From a virus, in the IMG/VR virus record IMGVR_UViG_3300021168_000001, positions 39,270-103,269 of that record: a DNA stretch of 64,000 bases. The stretch is one strand, 5' to 3'. The translations under genes were made by a program, and so were the position numbers. The notes under the pieces were generated by a model. It was not told where the DNA came from, ran no database searches, and saw only the letters and a list, made by a program, of their open reading frames with translations. Below, one piece after another: positions 25,053 through 39,919 of this stretch (the first letter of the stretch is position 1; the number at the start of each line of letters is the position of its first letter).

Positions 25053-25355
25053 CTAGGAACTGGGCGCAACATTGACGGGGACATTTGATCCCGCAATCTT
25101 CTTGTCGATGAATTCGACCAGCTTCCCCACCGTCTTTAGCTCTTCGATTGTTTCTTCATCTTCGCGAAGATCAATATCGAAAGACTCCTCGATCGACATT
25201 ACGAGTTCGACAAAGTCGAGAGAATCGGCACCAAGGTCCTGCGTAAACTCCGCACCGGGTGTTAGTTGCTCCTCATCCACCATCAGCTGGTCGCTGATTA
25301 TCTTTTTCAACTTTGCTTCAACCGAGTTGGGTTTCGGTACAGGAATCCTGTTCAT
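25053..25355 (-). CDS. acpP: Acyl carrier protein
   Basis: DLGADSLDFVELVMSIEESFDI with the phosphopantetheine Ser intact; GGAGG SD before ATG 25355. Confidence 0.9.
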   Translation of the reverse strand: MNRIPVPKPNSVEAKLKKIISDQLMVDEEQLTPGAEFTQDLGADSLDFVELVMSIEESFDIDLREDEETIEELKTVGKLVEFIDKKIAGSNVPVNVAPSS

Positions 25356-25464
25356 CGACCACCTCCCCACTTTTTCGCTTGGCGCCGGCGATCCGCGGCA
25401 AGACAGATCGCCGGCTTTGTGCATGCGGGCTATCCCGGCAGGAGCCACACGCACAACCTTATGA

Positions 25465-25794
25465 TTACACCGCAGCCGGTTCGTTTTTGTCTTCCGTGGT
25501 GATCGCACCGCCAAGAGCTTCGAGCTCCTTGCGCAGATCGGCACGCCGCTCCTCCGCAGTGCGGAGGCCGCGAAGCTCAGCGTGGATCTTCTGAATGCGA
25601 TGAGCCTTGTCAGCTTCGACCAACGTGGAAACCTGGGTGCGGATCGCAACGACCTTATCTTCAAACCACTTCGGGACCGGTGCTTCCAGTTCACCGAATT
25701 CGGTCTTAACAAGCCGCGCGAGCGCAGACAGTTCGACGAGTTCGTCGAGGCTGGCACCGTTCTTGTTGAAGTTTCTGATTGCTTCAAGCAGCAT
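25465..25794 (-). CDS. Small helical/coiled-coil protein coupled to the Ro60-like gene
   Basis: Overlaps the Ro60-like stop; AGGAGG SD. Confidence 0.65.
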   Translation of the reverse strand: MLLEAIRNFNKNGASLDELVELSALARLVKTEFGELEAPVPKWFEDKVVAIRTQVSTLVEADKAHRIQKIHAELRGLRTAEERRADLRKELEALGGAITTEDKNEPAAV

Positions 25795-27319
25795 TGACTG
25801 GTACCTCCTTTCTCAGATTTTTGAGAACATCATCCAACGTCAGAAGCCTGGAACCGAGCACCTCATCGATCAAACTGTAACGCGAAACGCGCATCGTCTG
25901 CACGATGTTGGGCAGGCTATACATGTCGGCCGTTTGTGACCGCATGTCGAATTCCTGCATTTCGATTCCGGCATTGCGCATCGTCAAGGCGAGATCGCGA
26001 TCATGAAGGGCCCTCACCGAACCCTGGAACCGGTAGAAGTACACTGGAGGTTCCTTATCGAGCATCTTACAAAGACTCTGATAGCGATCAACAAAGAACG
26101 GTGGCGTATTCTCCTGGCCATCCGACACCACCGCGATTCCATCCACCGGAAGCTTCTTGTCCATCGCATATTGGACACCGCACCCAATCGACGTTCCGCC
26201 ACCGATGAGTACATGGCGGGTGTCCGCAAGGATCTGCCCATAGTCCTTGCCTGTTACATCGAAGTAACGCGGCGAGGAGTCAAAGAAGATCAGGCTCACC
26301 TTCCCCTTGACGAACTTCGCTAGAGTGGCGGCCATAGTCCGCGCCACCTCGATACACTGCGACATGCTAGGGCTGCTGTCGCCGAGTACGAGCCAGTCCC
26401 CATCGATGCCGCCCAGCTTCTCGATCTGGCGCTCCTGGAGGCTGACCAACTTTTCCTTAAGGCCTTCGTCCTCGACAACTTCGGCCGCTCGCGTGGTCTT
26501 GAGCATATTCGCAGTGCTCTTCGATGCGCGCTTCAATCCCTCCTCGAAGGCACCACGTAGCGCCGGGTTGGTCTTGACACCACACCGCTCGAGCAGCTTT
26601 GTGTTCGTCACCAGTTCCGAAGGCGACATCTGCGTGATCAGTGCATGCAACAGGTCGGTATCCTTGGCCTTTTCTTCAAGCGCGCCCATTGCGATCAGGA
26701 ATGGGATCCTGCTCGTGATGATCGCGCTGGCTGCATCGGCAGAAGACATCTGCTTAAGGCCTGCGACCACCTCGAAAATCGAACCGGCCGGAAGCCCAGG
26801 ACGCGATGCTTCATTCTTGTCGCGATTCTTCCCATGGTGCAATACCCTCGAAACGTAATCGCTGCCGGCCTTCACATGAGCGAGCGTATAGAGCGATCGC
26901 AGCGGACGGCGGTGCTGCAGCGCGGTGCGGTCCCAGCGGCCACGGTCAGCTTCGAGATTGCGCAGGTAGGTCTCGATGATATTGCCCAGACGATTCACGA
27001 ATCCCTTCGGCCGCACCGCCAGCGCAAAGCGATAAGCTCGAACGAGCTCGCGCGGGCCGAGCGCAGCGAAGTGCGCAAGACTATTCTCGATGAATTCGGG
27101 AACCGCTGTGAATTGTGGCACCGTCAGCGATACGACTGGCAGAGCGACCTTAGAGTCACGCACATCACCCTTCACCATGTTCCAACTAATGAGGTGCGCC
27201 ATGAACTCCGGTTCCAGCTGCGCGGCCTGTTGGCCGACTGGCATGTACTCCTGGAGATTGCCATGTGGTGACTTGGCCAACTCCGACAAAATCTTATTCT
27301 TTGTGAATTGGGATTCCAT
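25784..27319 (-). CDS. Ro60/TROVE-like protein with C-terminal VWA domain
   Basis: Helical N-terminal region (DSKVALP, LYTLAHVK, QMSPSELVTN) plus VWA MIDAS motif GDSSPSM, GGTSIG and VVSDGQEN. Lies next to Y-RNA-like elements. Start taken at MESQF (27319). Confidence 0.7.
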   Translation of the reverse strand: MESQFTKNKILSELAKSPHGNLQEYMPVGQQAAQLEPEFMAHLISWNMVKGDVRDSKVALPVVSLTVPQFTAVPEFIENSLAHFAALGPRELVRAYRFALAVRPKGFVNRLGNIIETYLRNLEADRGRWDRTALQHRRPLRSLYTLAHVKAGSDYVSRVLHHGKNRDKNEASRPGLPAGSIFEVVAGLKQMSSADAASAIITSRIPFLIAMGALEEKAKDTDLLHALITQMSPSELVTNTKLLERCGVKTNPALRGAFEEGLKRASKSTANMLKTTRAAEVVEDEGLKEKLVSLQERQIEKLGGIDGDWLVLGDSSPSMSQCIEVARTMAATLAKFVKGKVSLIFFDSSPRYFDVTGKDYGQILADTRHVLIGGGTSIGCGVQYAMDKKLPVDGIAVVSDGQENTPPFFVDRYQSLCKMLDKEPPVYFYRFQGSVRALHDRDLALTMRNAGIEMQEFDMRSQTADMYSLPNIVQTMRVSRYSLIDEVLGSRLLTLDDVLKNLRKEVPVNAA

Positions 27320-27361
27320 TTTCTGACCACCTTCGGTTTTAACTTTGAAACGTGAAAACAG

Positions 27362-27430
27362 CCAGAGGCCTCCGGCTCTGACTCCCGAAAGAGTCTGAGT
27401 AATCATTGCCTCCTTCGAGCCTGCCTCTGG
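27362..27430 (-). ncRNA. Structured RNA element between the HNH and Ro60-like genes
   Basis: CCAGAGGC/GCCTCTGG terminal stem, GGCTC/GAGCC inner stem and GACTCT-TTCG-GGAGTC hairpin. Confidence 0.45.
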
Positions 27431-27433
27431 AAC

Positions 27434-28063
27434 TTATGGGAGCTTGCGAGTTTCGAGATGATGCAGCAGCATGGAATAACTCAGATGCTTGATCCTGCAC
27501 CATTCTTCCGGGTCCATCGCGCCTTTTTCTTTGTTACATTTTCGGCAGGCCGTCAGGTAATTGCTCGTGTCGTTGAAGCCACCTAACTCGAGTGGCCGGA
27601 AGTGATCGATCGTGAGAGGCGCCTTGCCCATCTTTACATCGCAATACATGCACTTCGAGCCATCAGCCAGCCACACCTTCTGCTGGATGAAGCCGCTAAT
27701 CTCATAGCGCACTTTGCGGTGGAAGGCCTTCGCCGGCATCACGAGAATCTCTGGATCGTCGGAGCGCTGCAGCCAGTCGGTCCACTCTTCAGCGGTCAGA
27801 CCGTACACAAGGACGTTCGGACCGGCCGCAACACCGTTGCCCCAAAGCGGTGCGCCAGGCAGCATGAGCACGGCCTGCGCGCCTTCGCCGCCGACCACGA
27901 GACCTTCGATTTTGAGGAGAGATCCGACATCACCATGGAGTGCCGGGCGGTGATGCAGCTGGAGTTCGTAGAACCGGTCATTGCTTGCCACAATGACTCC
28001 TTTCAGTTTTTGCCCGAAGATCGGCCTGGTGTTTTGATTTCTAGCATCGAGCCTAATGGTCAT
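27434..28063 (-). CDS. HNH nuclease-domain protein with a ~110 aa unique N-terminal domain
   Basis: CMYC...LTIDHFRPLELGG...NYLTACRKCNKEKG. Confidence 0.8.
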   Translation of the reverse strand: MTIRLDARNQNTRPIFGQKLKGVIVASNDRFYELQLHHRPALHGDVGSLLKIEGLVVGGEGAQAVLMLPGAPLWGNGVAAGPNVLVYGLTAEEWTDWLQRSDDPEILVMPAKAFHRKVRYEISGFIQQKVWLADGSKCMYCDVKMGKAPLTIDHFRPLELGGFNDTSNYLTACRKCNKEKGAMDPEEWCRIKHLSYSMLLHHLETRKLP

Positions 28064-28088
28064 TCGACCTTTTCGGCCCTAGCCGGAA

Positions 28089-28162
28089 GCCCCGATAAAG
28101 GTTTTTGTGGCGGGGCTTCCACTTTTAGGGTGGAAAATCATGTAACCAATCCAGTATCGGGC
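28089..28162 (-). ncRNA. Y-RNA-like element 4 (short, divergent)
   Basis: CCCGATA/TATCGGG stem, CTGGATTGGTTACATG motif and TTCCAC/GTGGAA hairpin. Confidence 0.55.
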
Positions 28163-28170
28163 AAATTTTC

Positions 28171-28238
28171 TGAGGCTAGATCGTCCGGCTGTTCACTGAT
28201 CCTTCGCAAGAGTCATGTAAGCCGTACAGTAAGCCCCA
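28171..28238 (-). ncRNA. Y-RNA-like element 3 (minimal)
   Basis: TGGGGCT/AGCCTCA stem (a G.U pair fixes the strand), with CTGTACGGCTTACATG and CAGCCGGACGATCT motifs. Confidence 0.7.
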
Positions 28239-28247
28239 AGCTTTGAA

Positions 28248-28404
28248 TGGGCGACCCAGGAGTCGAACCTGGATGAATCAGCCTTTCGGCTGGTCCTGCA
28301 TGTATGCAACCGAGTGGGCAGCTTTCGCGGCCAGATCCGTCTGCAATCGGCTCTGGTTTCCCAGAACCGTTTGTTCGCTGCGTTTGCCATTCCGCCAGTC
28401 GCCC
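28248..28404 (-). ncRNA. tRNA-shaped RNA with an expanded anticodon/variable region
   Basis: Perfect acceptor stem GGGCGAC/GTCGCCC plus A, D-arm GCGGAATGGCAAACGC, T-arm CCAGG-TTCGACT-CCTGG and an ~105 nt multi-hairpin interior. Confidence 0.75.
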
Positions 28405-28410
28405 AAAACT

Positions 28411-28580
28411 TGATCCCCGTCTCTCCGGAGCGTCACCGCTTGTTCATTGTGGCATTGCGGTTACTGAGCAGATAGGCTTGCGCCCGCTGTACCATGTGTC
28501 CGATGAACTCGGAAGGAGCGCCTACGGGTAATACTCACTCCTGATTCGTTTTCAAGCTCCCCAGCAGCGCTACTGGATCA
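28411..28580 (-). ncRNA. Unassigned structured RNA candidate
   Basis: TGATCC/GGATCA closing stem, AGCG-CTGCT / AGCGG-TGA-CGCT bulged helix and CCG-GAGAGA-CGG hairpin. Confidence 0.45.
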
Positions 28581-28616
28581 TAGCCGACCCGCGAATAAAC
28601 ATCGCCTCGATTTGAA

Positions 28617-28750
28617 TTTCCCTTTGCAGATCGTTCGGCAATTCATTGATTGTGAGAATCGGGTTCGAACCGATTACCTACTGATTTGACTGTCAGTTGC
28701 TCTTCCAAATGAGCTACCTCGCATGTACGCCACCCAGTAGCAAAGGGAAA
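28617..28750 (-). ncRNA. Y-RNA-like element 2 carrying a full non-permuted tRNA-like cloverleaf (28651-28723)
   Basis: 11-bp stem TTTCCCTTTGC/GCAAAGGGAAA; CTGGGTGGCGTACATG and GCCGAACGATCT motifs; D, anticodon and T arms in canonical order. Confidence 0.8.
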
Positions 28751-28757
28751 ACTTGAA

Positions 28758-28892
28758 TTGAGGCTAGATCGGTCGGCTGTGTTGCTTTTCAATGGGCGAT
28801 GCTCTACCAACTGAGCTACTTTCCCTTGCGGGACAGGCTGGATTCGAACCAGCGACCAACGCCGTACATGTAAGCCATCCAGTGAGCCTCAA
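28758..28892 (-). ncRNA. YrlA-like Y RNA with circularly permuted tRNA domain
   Basis: TTGAGGCT/AGCCTCAA stem. The T-arm GCTGG-TTCGAAT-CCAGC comes before a GCAA-closed acceptor-like stem and the D-arm GCTC-AGTTGGTA-GAGC. Confidence 0.85.
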
Positions 28893-28922
28893 ACCTGAAA
28901 CTCTGTCTTTCGATGCTTGTAC

Positions 28923-28952
28923 AGCCTAGCACCATCCCATTGGGAATTTCAA
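28923..28952 (-). promoter_or_regulatory. Sigma70-type promoter of the RNA array/Ro operon with a palindrome in the spacer
   Basis: TTGAAA-18 nt-TAGGCT with extended TGn; TCCCAATGGGA in the spacer (28935-28945). Confidence 0.6.
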
Positions 28953-28966
28953 GCCCGGGCCTGATT

Positions 28967-29428
28967 TTATTTTTCCAATCTCATCAGCCGTTCGAATGTC
29001 GGCTTGCGCTTCGCTGGAAAACGCTGAAACGGATGAACCATTTGCCCACCGGCCCTCTCAGCGCTACGGAAGAGTGTCATGCGCATCTCGGGCTCGAGCG
29101 CCCACCACCGCTCCGCCCAAACCCGGCTTCGCTGCGCGGTGATTCCCATCTCATGACACCACCGAGTTGGCAGGATATGAACCGCGAGCACCAACCAGGT
29201 CCTCTCGTGTTTGTTGCCGATGTTCGACTGGAGAAGGTCGCCGCGCTTGGGCCGCGGATCGCCTGGCGGTTGGTGGTAGACCGTTTTCACTTCAGATTTT
29301 GCCCTTCTGGCGCCGCCGCTGGCGCTCGAACAACGCGCGGTCAGCAAACATAATCGCACCGTGATAAGACGGATCCTTTTGAGCGGAAACAGCCAAAATG
29401 ATCGAAGACCAGAACTGTTCGTCCTCAT
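28967..29428 (-). CDS. Hypothetical protein (true start probably ~29290)
   Basis: C-terminal ~105 aa VKTVYHQPPG... looks like the real coding part. Confidence 0.4.
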   Translation of the reverse strand: MRTNSSGLRSFWLFPLKRIRLITVRLCLLTARCSSASGGARRAKSEVKTVYHQPPGDPRPKRGDLLQSNIGNKHERTWLVLAVHILPTRWCHEMGITAQRSRVWAERWWALEPEMRMTLFRSAERAGGQMVHPFQRFPAKRKPTFERLMRLEK

Positions 29429-30653: not shown

Positions 30654-30908
30654 TTAATATCCCCCGCTTCCGAGATTGCGCCGGAAGGTCAGAGGAACCT
30701 GGCCGCTGATCGCGCCGTTTGGATGGATCGTTGTCGATTCACCATCACCATCTGGCGGGACCAGAGTGGCTACATGCTTGCCGCTCTTCTCGATTTCGAC
30801 AGTCATGCCATGGGCGACTGAATCAATCACCTCGCCTGGCTGCGAACGAAGTTCCATCATGTTGACGCGCGCCCGCTGGCCTCTAAAGTCACGCTTTGGT
30901 ATCGGCAA
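30654..30908 (-). CDS. Phd/YefM-like antitoxin-type protein
   Basis: [35 protein letters not shown]. Confidence 0.7.
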
Positions 30909-39200: not shown

Positions 39201-39919
39201 AACGATTCTACACAGATCGACTCGTGAAGCGCTTATTCGGCGGCTACGATCACTGCGTATGCGGTGAAGGTGATTGCCCTTTTCACATCGCCTATTGCGC
39301 CTGTGGCTGCGAGGAACCGGTAAATTATCGACGCAATGGAACTCCAAATATTTGGGTGCGTGGCCATGAACGGCGCGCCAAACGATGGACAGATGAACGT
39401 CGGCAAAGCTTTTCTGCGAAAAAGAAAGGTTGCCGCGGAATCTGGAAGGGCAAGACACTGCCCGAGTCTGCCCGCGAGAACATGCGCAAGGCTCGTGTTG
39501 GAATGACGCTGTCGCCTGAACATCGACACAATATTGGTCTCAGCATCACCGGTCGCAAATTCTCAGAAGCGACTCTGGATAAATTACGCGCTCACCGCCA
39601 TACGCCAGAGACAATCGCAAAGATGAAAGGCCGCACCGGATCACGCTGCCCAGCATGGAAAGGTGGAATTTCCTCCATCAATAACGCACTTCGCAACTCA
39701 ACGGAAGCGCGCCAGTGGAAACGAGAAGTGTTTCGTCGCGATAACTTCACCTGCCAGGATTGTGGTGCGAAAAGCTCTCGCGGCCACAAGGTCCACATCC
39801 AGGCTCACCATTTGCAAAGTTGGTCAGAGTTTCCAGCACTTCGCTTTGAAGTGAGCAACGGTCTCACGCTCTGCCATCTCTGCCATGGCATTCGACACGG
39901 GCGCAAATTGCGTCCATAA
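39197..39919 (+). CDS. NUMOD3-repeat HNH endonuclease
   Basis: CACGC, NUMOD3-like repeats, VFRRDNFTCQDCG...AHH...NGLTLCHLCH. Confidence 0.85.
   Translation: MKRFYTDRLVKRLFGGYDHCVCGEGDCPFHIAYCACGCEEPVNYRRNGTPNIWVRGHERRAKRWTDERRQSFSAKKKGCRGIWKGKTLPESARENMRKARVGMTLSPEHRHNIGLSITGRKFSEATLDKLRAHRHTPETIAKMKGRTGSRCPAWKGGISSINNALRNSTEARQWKREVFRRDNFTCQDCGAKSSRGHKVHIQAHHLQSWSEFPALRFEVSNGLTLCHLCHGIRHGRKLRP

Follow-up and report, generated by a model that had tools for sequence, protein, structure and literature searches.

A probable Y RNA with native tRNA topology, a circular permutation of the YrlA design, encoded upstream of a divergent Ro60-type gene in a soil phage genome

Introduction

Y RNAs are obligate partners of Ro60. 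The bacterial Y RNA YrlA (Rfam RF02553; Chen et al. 2014, PMC4201824; structure in Wang et al. 2018, 10.1101/312249) has been described as a circularly permuted transfer RNA (tRNA) with a closed acceptor (10.1101/312249, PMC4201824). The arrangement of a Ro60 gene with an upstream Y-type RNA is known from bacteria and from 22 phages (PMC4201824), and phage Ro60 proteins bind Y-like RNAs encoded upstream of them, with biochemistry available for the Thermus phage phiLo (PMC12135203). In Mycobacterium smegmatis, YrlA is opened by RNase P and CCA is added (PMC4201824). The present analysis concerns a 157-nt element on the minus strand (positions 28248-28404) of a 64,000-nt window, i.e. positions 39,270 to 103,269 of the IMG/VR record IMGVR_UViG_3300021168_000001, which is a complete virus of 103,269 bp with direct terminal repeats. 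All coordinates given without a locus name are window positions.

A sequence-only reading of the window had described the element as a tRNA-shaped RNA whose anticodon arm is replaced by a domain of several hairpins. The anatomy of the element, the handle that it shares with its neighbours, covariation within its family, its linkage to a gene for a Ro60 fold, its permuted relationship to YrlA-type units and its presence in RNA libraries were established computationally. Taken together, they make it probable that the element is a Y RNA with native tRNA topology, which permutes the YrlA design circularly and serves a divergent phage Ro60 as its RNA partner.

Results

Anatomy of the element

The features listed by the sequence-only reading, namely a perfect 7-bp acceptor stem, a Leu/Ser-like D arm, a canonical T arm and three GAAA-capped hairpins, were all found, on the minus strand. 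The parts of the element are as follows.

28248-28404, minus strand: whole element, unit C of an array; 157 nt, tRNA topology, Y-RNA-like
28398-28404, minus strand: acceptor 5' strand GGGCGAC, 7/7 Watson-Crick pairs with 28249-28255
28380-28395, minus strand: D arm GCG-GAAUGGCAAA-CGC, 3-bp stem with GG in the loop, class II (Leu/Ser-type) layout
28348-28369, minus strand: GAAA-capped hairpin CGGUUCUGG/CCAGAGCCG between D arm and handle, with a counterpart in the closed-acceptor unit of the related locus L036
28342-28345, minus strand: strand a of the inner handle helix, UGCA, with its partner at 28305-28308; helix 2, covarying in the class
28333-28341, minus strand: 3'-type handle motif GACGGAUCU; compare GACCGAUCU in unit A, GAACGAUCU in unit B, GGACGAUCU in unit D and GGCCGAUCU in unit E
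28317-28332, minus strand: outer handle helix GGCCGC-GAAA-GCUGCC, closed by the tetraloop; helix 3, covarying in the class
28299-28316, minus strand: 5'-type handle motif, consisting of CACU-CGGU, strand b of the inner helix (UGCA) and UACAUG, the last invariant in 31/32 class members
28275-28296, minus strand: hairpin H3, GGA-C-CAGCC-GAAA-GGCUG-A-UUC, sitting where the long variable arm of a class II tRNA would
28256-28272, minus strand: T arm CCAGG-UUCGACU-CCUGG (GGUUCGACUCC); helix 4, covarying in the class
28248-28255, minus strand: acceptor 3' strand GUCGCCC and discriminator A at 28248; UUC follows, and CCA is not encoded

The insert between the tRNA-like arms measured 107 nt. Folding of the element gave a minimum free energy (MFE) of -69.4 kcal/mol (z = -4.4), and 0/200 shuffles folded equally well. 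The fold based on homology, at -69.0 kcal/mol, equalled the MFE within error. The letters UGCA-UACA-UGCA, which had been pointed out before, were indeed present at 28308-28297; as a local hairpin, however, they are probably not formed, because by homology the first UGCA of the handle (28345-28342) would pair with 28308-28305. The view of the element as a tRNA-like scaffold without a real anticodon arm was borne out.

A handle shared with neighbouring units

The handle of the element is 48 nt long, closed by a loop, and reads UGCA-GACGGAUCU-GGCCGC-GAAA-GCUGCC-CACUCGGU-UGCA-UACAUG. Related handles were observed in four neighbouring units.

28760-28890, minus strand: unit A, open handle with a closed-acceptor (YrlA-type) tRNA-like module; sub-threshold Rfam YrlA match and handle strands
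28620-28747, minus strand: unit B, open handle around a whole tRNA (28650-28723 by ARAGORN and Rfam) with an 8-nt anticodon loop
28172-28237, minus strand: unit D, open handle whose cargo is a small GCGA hairpin alone; begins 10 nt past the element
28013-28161, minus strand: unit E, cargo of about 100 nt in an open handle (CCCGA/UCGGG, UGGU/ACCA); handle strands

Units A, B, D and E have an open handle, built from the RNA's 5' and 3' termini, in the order [outer helix]-YACU-NNNN-[4 bp]-UACAUG, cargo, [4 bp']-G-N-N-CGAUCU-[outer helix']. The handle of the element is inverted relative to these: the 3'-type strand leads, the tetraloop closes the outer helix and the 5'-type strand comes last. The 17-nt pattern ACT-N8-TACATG was found in five copies in the 103-kb genome, all on the minus strand within 750 nt (28139-28883), one of them inside the element; 0.11 copies were expected genome-wide by chance, and reversed-pattern controls gave 0. 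Every copy was accompanied by a matching 4-nt complement followed by G-N-N-[C/G]-GAUCU. The outer helices of the four open units (GAGGCU/AGCCUC, CCCUUUGC/GCAAAGGG, GGGGCU/AGCCUC and CCCGA/UCGGG) differed by compensatory changes, and so did the inner helices (GGCU/AGCC, GGCG/UGCC, GGCU/AGCC and UGGU/ACCA; UGCA/UGCA in the element).

Unit A, 360 nt upstream of the element, matched the Rfam YrlA model at 28770-28878 with 40.5 bits (E 3e-7; gathering score 69). Because the acceptor is open and the handle sealed in the element, while unit A and YrlA have a sealed acceptor and an open handle, the element can be read as a permuted YrlA design. The tRNA of unit B (28650-28723) scored 45.7 bits with Rfam, has the 8-nt anticodon loop CAGUCAAA and is mounted in an open handle. 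A tRNA in an open handle was likewise seen in locus L036 (2243-2314), where the acceptor's 5' strand consists for the most part of UACAUG itself.

Between unit B and the element lies a stretch of 179 nt (28405-28583, minus strand) whose ends pair (UGAUCC/GGAUCA) and which resembles a further stem-closed unit, unit X. It carries the variant CACAUG after UCGGA and, near its 3' end, UCCGG-AGAGACGGGGAUC; its fold z is only -1.8. The flanking units X (upstream) and D (downstream) each have a complete handle of their own, and the outer-helix strands of the element are complementary to each other and separated by 4 nt, so that the element is more than a junction of two ordinary units. In a blastn search of GenBank phages with the array, just two short tRNA-arm matches were obtained.

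A Ro60-type gene downstream of the array

A gene whose product is predicted to have a full-length Ro60 fold follows the array on the same strand, and all units are found 0.6-1.6 kb upstream of it.

25784-27406, minus strand: Ro60-type protein gene; HEAT-repeat ring and von Willebrand factor A (vWA) domain with DxSxS metal ion-dependent adhesion site (MIDAS), predicted fold

The AlphaFold model (predicted local distance difference test, pLDDT, 81.5) matched Ro60 along its whole length. The top 12 Foldseek matches in the PDB were all Ro60/TROVE proteins, with 456-534 aligned columns and template modelling (TM) scores of 0.43-0.60, and included Ro60 of Thermus phage phiLo, of human and of Xenopus as well as Rsr of Deinococcus radiodurans. 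The MIDAS residues D343, S345 and S347 were unchanged across 29 homologues. Searches of Pfam, NCBIfam, PHROGs and PDB sequences with the single protein and with a 29-sequence profile gave weak vWA matches only, so the Ro60 assignment rests on the predicted fold. The T5 anti-retron protein 'Rad', of 189 residues, is not related. The true start of the gene is probably M30 at 27319: the alignment of homologues begins near residue 30, and residues 1-32 have pLDDT values under 40. A start at M30 would leave 27320-27433 (minus strand) as 114 nt of non-coding sequence with a hairpin closed by CCAGAGGC/GCCUCUGG; its fold z is only -1.3. From the end of the element to the gene (27406/27319..25784), which has the same orientation, the distance is 0.84-0.93 kb depending on the start chosen, i.e. 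within the range of about 4 kb given for YrlA. As modelled, the locus is a phage Ro60 locus with Y-type RNAs upstream.

Relatives and covariation

More than 900 metagenomic homologues of the Ro60-type protein were found, the closest with about 60% protein identity. Through this protein 78 viral loci were retrieved, of which 66 were non-redundant and used for counts. At least two TACATG units on the same strand were present within 3.5 kb upstream of the Ro60-type gene in 58/66 loci, and copies of TACATG upstream numbered 239 on the same strand vs 53 on the opposite one, compared with 47/25 downstream. When T arms enclosed by an open acceptor of 7 bp were sought, many RNAs of 110-125 nt with native-tRNA connectivity came to light.

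A covariance model, R1, was built from 16 tRNA-topology units of other phages, none of them from the window. Run against the window and the whole genome, it gave the element as the sole significant match (33.8 bits, E 1.8e-5), at full model length. The inner helix, the outer hairpin, UACAUG and the T arm were aligned. The acceptor 5' strand was set 42 nt too far in, because the element carries an extra 42 nt, comprising a full D arm and a GAAA hairpin; equivalents of the D arm are also present in class members and in L036. Over 67 sources R1 gave 32 matches at E < 4e-4, a number to be taken as an upper bound, all upstream of the Ro60-type gene and on the same strand.

In the alignment of these 32 members 93.4% of the cells were paired, vs 62% in shuffles and 38-50% in slid controls. 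Variation on both sides was seen for 20/21 modelled pairs, including all nine within the insert, and all four helices covary. CGACUU and YACUG are the consensus sequences of the loop motifs, and the handle measures 44-51 nt in most members. The element fits this class of native-topology handle RNAs, with its open 7-bp acceptor, a 48-nt closed handle ending in UACAUG, H3, the T arm and a Ro60-type gene downstream. Tandem pairs of native-topology units, 7-9 nt apart, were found at L010:2294-2534, L024:2510-2759 and L030:2388-2632. Since their acceptor strands pair within units and not across the junction, the native connectivity is real.

NCCA is encoded at the end of 22/32 members, and seven members have G3:U70 (L030:2388-2504, L024:2510-2630, L001:2992-3088, L028:2688-2806, L019:2437-2554, L010:2294-2407 and L013:2724-2837). 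Six of these seven carry A73-CCA. G3:U70 together with A73-CCA is the alanine identity set, which is used by transfer-messenger RNA (tmRNA). Another native-topology subgroup reads GCCGGGU...ACCCGGC-UCCA with U73. Selection for recognition by particular synthetases may be acting on the ends of the acceptor.

An RNA-first scan of IMG/VR was made with a pattern for a closed handle and T loop (CGACUU-hairpin-ACU-N9-UACAUG-N20-45-GUUCRA). Five matches were obtained, four of them just upstream of a Ro60-type gene. The fifth, in L096, was rejected as a chance match in AT-rich, coding-like DNA of a 42%-complete contig without a Ro60-type gene. A metagenome scan yielded 11 loci, none of which held a near-identical element.

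Permutation test

In L036 the real unit (2541-2690) is of the ordinary type with a closed acceptor, and it matches Rfam YrlA weakly, at 24.3 bits. This unit was cut at its acceptor loop, rejoined at the handle ends and aligned to the element. The alignment score was 123 in permuted order vs 66.5 in native order; shuffles scored 62.6 +/- 6.7 with a maximum of 93.5. The permuted unit was collinear with the element through acceptor, class II D arm, GAAA hairpin, 3'-type strand, 5'-type strand and UACAUG, and further through a GAAA-capped H3, a UUCAUC linker, the T arm and the acceptor. Because the hairpin GGUUCUGG-GAAA-CCAGAGCC is shared with L036, it is part of the cargo type and not a private insertion of the element.

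Presence in RNA libraries

Parts of the array were found at 99-100% identity in four soil metatranscriptome runs from different studies. The X2 contig spans 28071-28583 at 100% identity, includes the whole element and has an adapter joined at 28583; its mean depth was 22.5, and that of the contig over the neighbouring HNH gene was 3.2. The X6 contig covers exactly 28404-28583, sharing the end at 28583 and stopping at the first base of the acceptor. Pieces from RNA runs at 28800-28859 were disregarded, as they are tRNAs of other organisms and their letters between the arms differ. Contigs with these limits would be expected if RNase P cut at G1 and thereby freed the upstream 179-nt unit. The earlier suggestion that tRNA maturases punctuate the array transcript gains plausibility from the X6 contig, which ends exactly at base 1 of the element. 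A pattern scan of 27900-29100 found neither a sigma-70-like promoter nor a minus-strand terminator and is no evidence of a single transcript.

Neighbouring genes

Between the array and the Ro60-type gene lies a gene for an HNH endonuclease of 186 residues (27434-27991, minus strand). Its true start is probably the GUG at 27991, which has GGAG 8 nt upstream and yields an N-terminus (MASNDRFY) like that of homologues, and not the ATG at 28063, which overlaps unit E. The N-terminal part of about 120 residues gave no family match. An open reading frame (ORF) of 244 residues (25053-25787, minus strand) overlaps the stop of the Ro60-type gene by 4 nt. Its last 80 or so residues form an acyl carrier protein domain (NCBIfam acyl_carrier, 80 bits). 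In just 2/66 related loci did the neighbourhood of the Ro60-type gene contain a homologue of the complete ORF.

Discussion

Weight of the evidence

We consider it likely that the element is a native-topology Y RNA and the partner of the phage Ro60. The sequence-only reading had left room for an unknown class of non-coding RNA; this can be given up, as the insert is the handle of Y-RNA-like neighbours, unit A matches YrlA and a Ro60-fold gene lies downstream. Several observations count against the Y RNA assignment. The Pfam TROVE model misses the Ro60-type protein, and the Rfam YrlA model misses the element at E <= 10 (gathering 69 bits). The handle motifs (UACAUG, CGAYYU and YACUG) differ from GNCGAAN0-1G, the motif published for recognition by Ro60 and located near the 5' end (PMC4201824): the 157 nt contain no exact match, and the lone CGAA (28377-28374) lies in a linker without conserved context. 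Where most relatives have CGACUU, the handle of this lineage uses CGAUCU or GGAUCU. With a model of the closed handle only, R2, the element ranked first in the window, but its score of 14.2 bits (E 0.44) was not significant and was equalled by a partial match at 30760-30777. CCA is not encoded, unlike in 22/32 relatives, and the phage has no CCA-adding enzyme. The R1 match in L036 is a junction of two ordinary units, which makes the count of 32 an upper bound. The linkage of RNA and protein was measured mostly one way, with loci chosen through the protein. The library evidence consists of contigs, not reads, from which transcription, strand and ends are not provable. Finally, binding to Ro60, processing by RNase P and RNase Z, CCA addition and an effector are steps that we infer. 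The L036 match itself (2437-2616) had been taken as the nearest native-topology relative and was rejected, since it spans the two-unit junction and its upstream GGGGGAC is a chance occurrence.

Alternative explanations

The handle might be bound or processed by another protein, such as the 186-residue HNH protein, the element then being the RNA of that protein. HNH homologues lie on the same strand near the units, between or after them, in 27/66 loci, the HNH domain weakly resembles those of the RNA-guided nucleases IscB and Cas9, and the assignment of the handle to Ro60 is itself putative. The HNH gene is missing in 39/66 loci, however, as against arrays in 58/66, and the IscB and Cas9 matches are limited to the generic HNH motif and fall far under curated cut-offs, whereas the YrlA match and the published order of Ro60 and Y RNA genes (PMC4201824, PMC12135203) favour Ro60. 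We hold this explanation to be unlikely, and quite unlikely is also that the element is a non-functional, decaying by-product of tandem duplication, in which the 5' part of the acceptor comes from one YrlA-type unit and the 3' part from the unit after it. A circular permutation would most obviously arise by tandem duplication, the L036 model match truly is such a two-unit junction, and the element lacks the CCA encoded in most relatives. A relic of this kind is nevertheless hard to reconcile with a perfect 7-bp acceptor, with complementary outer strands joined by GAAA and with a fold z of -4.4. Both flanking units have complete handles, and the architecture recurs in many phages with compensatory changes in all helices and with tandem copies that pair within units.

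Readings of the element as a more ordinary tRNA relative fared worse. At gathering thresholds ARAGORN and Rfam reported only the tRNA at 28650-28723, and permissive Rfam searches (E <= 10) placed no tRNA, tmRNA or intron family on the element, in keeping with the earlier statement that it is too short for a group I intron or a full tmRNA. A group I intron was rejected, as the insert of 107 nt compares with about 200 nt or more and a P1-P9 core needed, and Rfam Intron_gpI gave no match at E <= 10. The intron option of ARAGORN did propose a tRNA-Cys(GCA) at 28405-28247, in which an intron of 64 nt separates positions 31 and 32 and UUGCAUA is the 7-nt loop; such a gene might be spliced to a working tRNA. 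To this we give almost no credence: the anticodon stem has 3/5 pairs and position 37 is U, 64 nt is far below the size of a group I intron, of which Rfam finds none, and the supposed anticodon loop consists of an inner-helix strand and the UACAUG common to handle units. Such calls were made in only 4/32 relatives, with amino acid, intron position and length all different, while default ARAGORN and the Rfam tRNA model made no call on the element. Recovery of a spliced ordinary tRNA, or homologues without conserved pairing in the insert, had been named beforehand as grounds for abandoning the sequence-only reading; no consistent spliced tRNA was recovered, and homologues show covarying pairing in the insert. 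Very improbable, too, is a miniature tmRNA-like RNA or another ribosome-directed tRNA mimic acting independently of Ro60. The T arm, the open acceptor and the large insert that stands where an anticodon arm is expected would suit it, as would the seven relatives with G3:U70, six of them with A73-CCA (the alanine set). Against it, ARAGORN in tmRNA mode (-m) found 0 genes even at relaxed score and the Rfam tmRNA families gave nothing; tag frame and pseudoknots are missing, the element has G3-C70 and a true D stem, and its insert is the handle of the Ro60 array.

Proposed mechanism

If the element is a native-topology Y RNA, the array would be transcribed as a single precursor. Host RNase P would cleave at G1 (28404) and RNase Z or exonucleases after A73 (28248), and these cuts would free the element and also its neighbouring units X and D. 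CCA would be supplied by a host enzyme, because none is encoded and the phage has no CCA enzyme of its own. The handle could then dock the RNA onto the phage Ro60-type ring, and the displayed tRNA-like body might, in the manner of Y RNAs, serve as a tether or decoy for host factors that bind tRNA or as a gate to the Ro60 cavity, by analogy with particles of Y RNA and polynucleotide phosphorylase (PNPase; PMC4201824, PMC12135203). A bolder version, which we regard as doubtful, is that native-topology Y RNAs mature to CCA-ended tRNA mimics that can be aminoacylated while still docked on Ro60. Such a charged or chargeable look-alike might capture or decoy synthetases, EF-Tu or defence tRNA nucleases, or feed Ro60-associated exonucleases; the amino acid would be alanine for the relatives with G3:U70 and A73, and possibly leucine for the element (A73, class II D arm).

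Significance

In published Y RNAs the acceptor is sealed, and CCA or an amino acid can be received only after cutting. The element and about 30 soil-phage relatives encode the opposite solution, a free and usually CCA-ended acceptor with a sealed docking handle. If binding holds, the chemistry of tRNA ends (RNase P and RNase Z, CCA addition, perhaps charging) becomes testable within Ro60 biology, the UACAUG handle offers a compact, searchable signature for a large Ro60 clade unseen by Pfam, and one operon provides a natural pair of permuted isoforms for finding out which face of the tRNA mimic matters. The element also offers an explanation of how host tRNA maturases could cut a small-RNA array of several units.

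Comparison with known systems

The locus resembles YrlA loci in that a modular RNA precedes a Ro60 gene by less than 4 kb in the same orientation, with several different Y RNAs per locus, and in an RNA body of acceptor, D and T arms, often with a class II-type long variable arm, joined via the 'anticodon stem' to a protein-docking helix. The tRNA-like module of YrlA is present in the element as a 7-bp acceptor, a 3-bp D stem with GG in the loop and a T arm. The two differ in that the acceptor of YrlA is closed and its helix open, whereas the ends of the element form the acceptor and GAAA seals the docking helix, and in that the Ro60 partner of the element is too divergent for Pfam TROVE. The element would work like a Y RNA, yet it is outside RF02553 as modelled.

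Neither a paper nor an Rfam family was found for a native-topology form in one piece, the nearest precedent being the two-piece form of M. smegmatis (PMC4201824). Processed M. smegmatis YrlA likewise has a free 7-bp acceptor with CCA, still on the Ro60-binding stem (PMC4201824), and 22/32 relatives of the element encode NCCA. It consists, however, of two paired pieces, while the element is one continuous chain because its handle is closed. The phiLo system, with Ro60 and Yrl1/Yrl2 (PMC12135203; PDB 9KOP, 9L5Y), shares a phage Ro60 with Y-like RNAs encoded just upstream and is a precedent for RNA binding and for recruitment of host PNPase (PMC12135203). Its RNAs are described as stem-bulge-stem with a CGAA motif, and no tRNA-like domain was reported, whereas the present locus holds at least five units with tRNA-derived cargo.

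With tmRNA and viral tRNA-like structures the element shares an open acceptor/T-arm half and an insert other than an anticodon arm. Those RNAs are substrates of RNase P, of the CCA enzyme and, in some cases, of aminoacyl-tRNA synthetases. The element differs from them in that it lacks a tag ORF, pseudoknots and a position at the 3' end of a genome, in that ARAGORN and Rfam do not detect it, and in being linked to Ro60 and not to SmpB or replication. Circularly permuted tRNA genes of algae (Cyanidioschyzon merolae and others; cited in 10.1101/312249) show that tRNA folds tolerate permutation. These genes mature to ordinary tRNAs via a circular intermediate, whereas nothing about the element points to a decoding tRNA. 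Both gene orders occur close together in the window, one in unit A and the other in the element.

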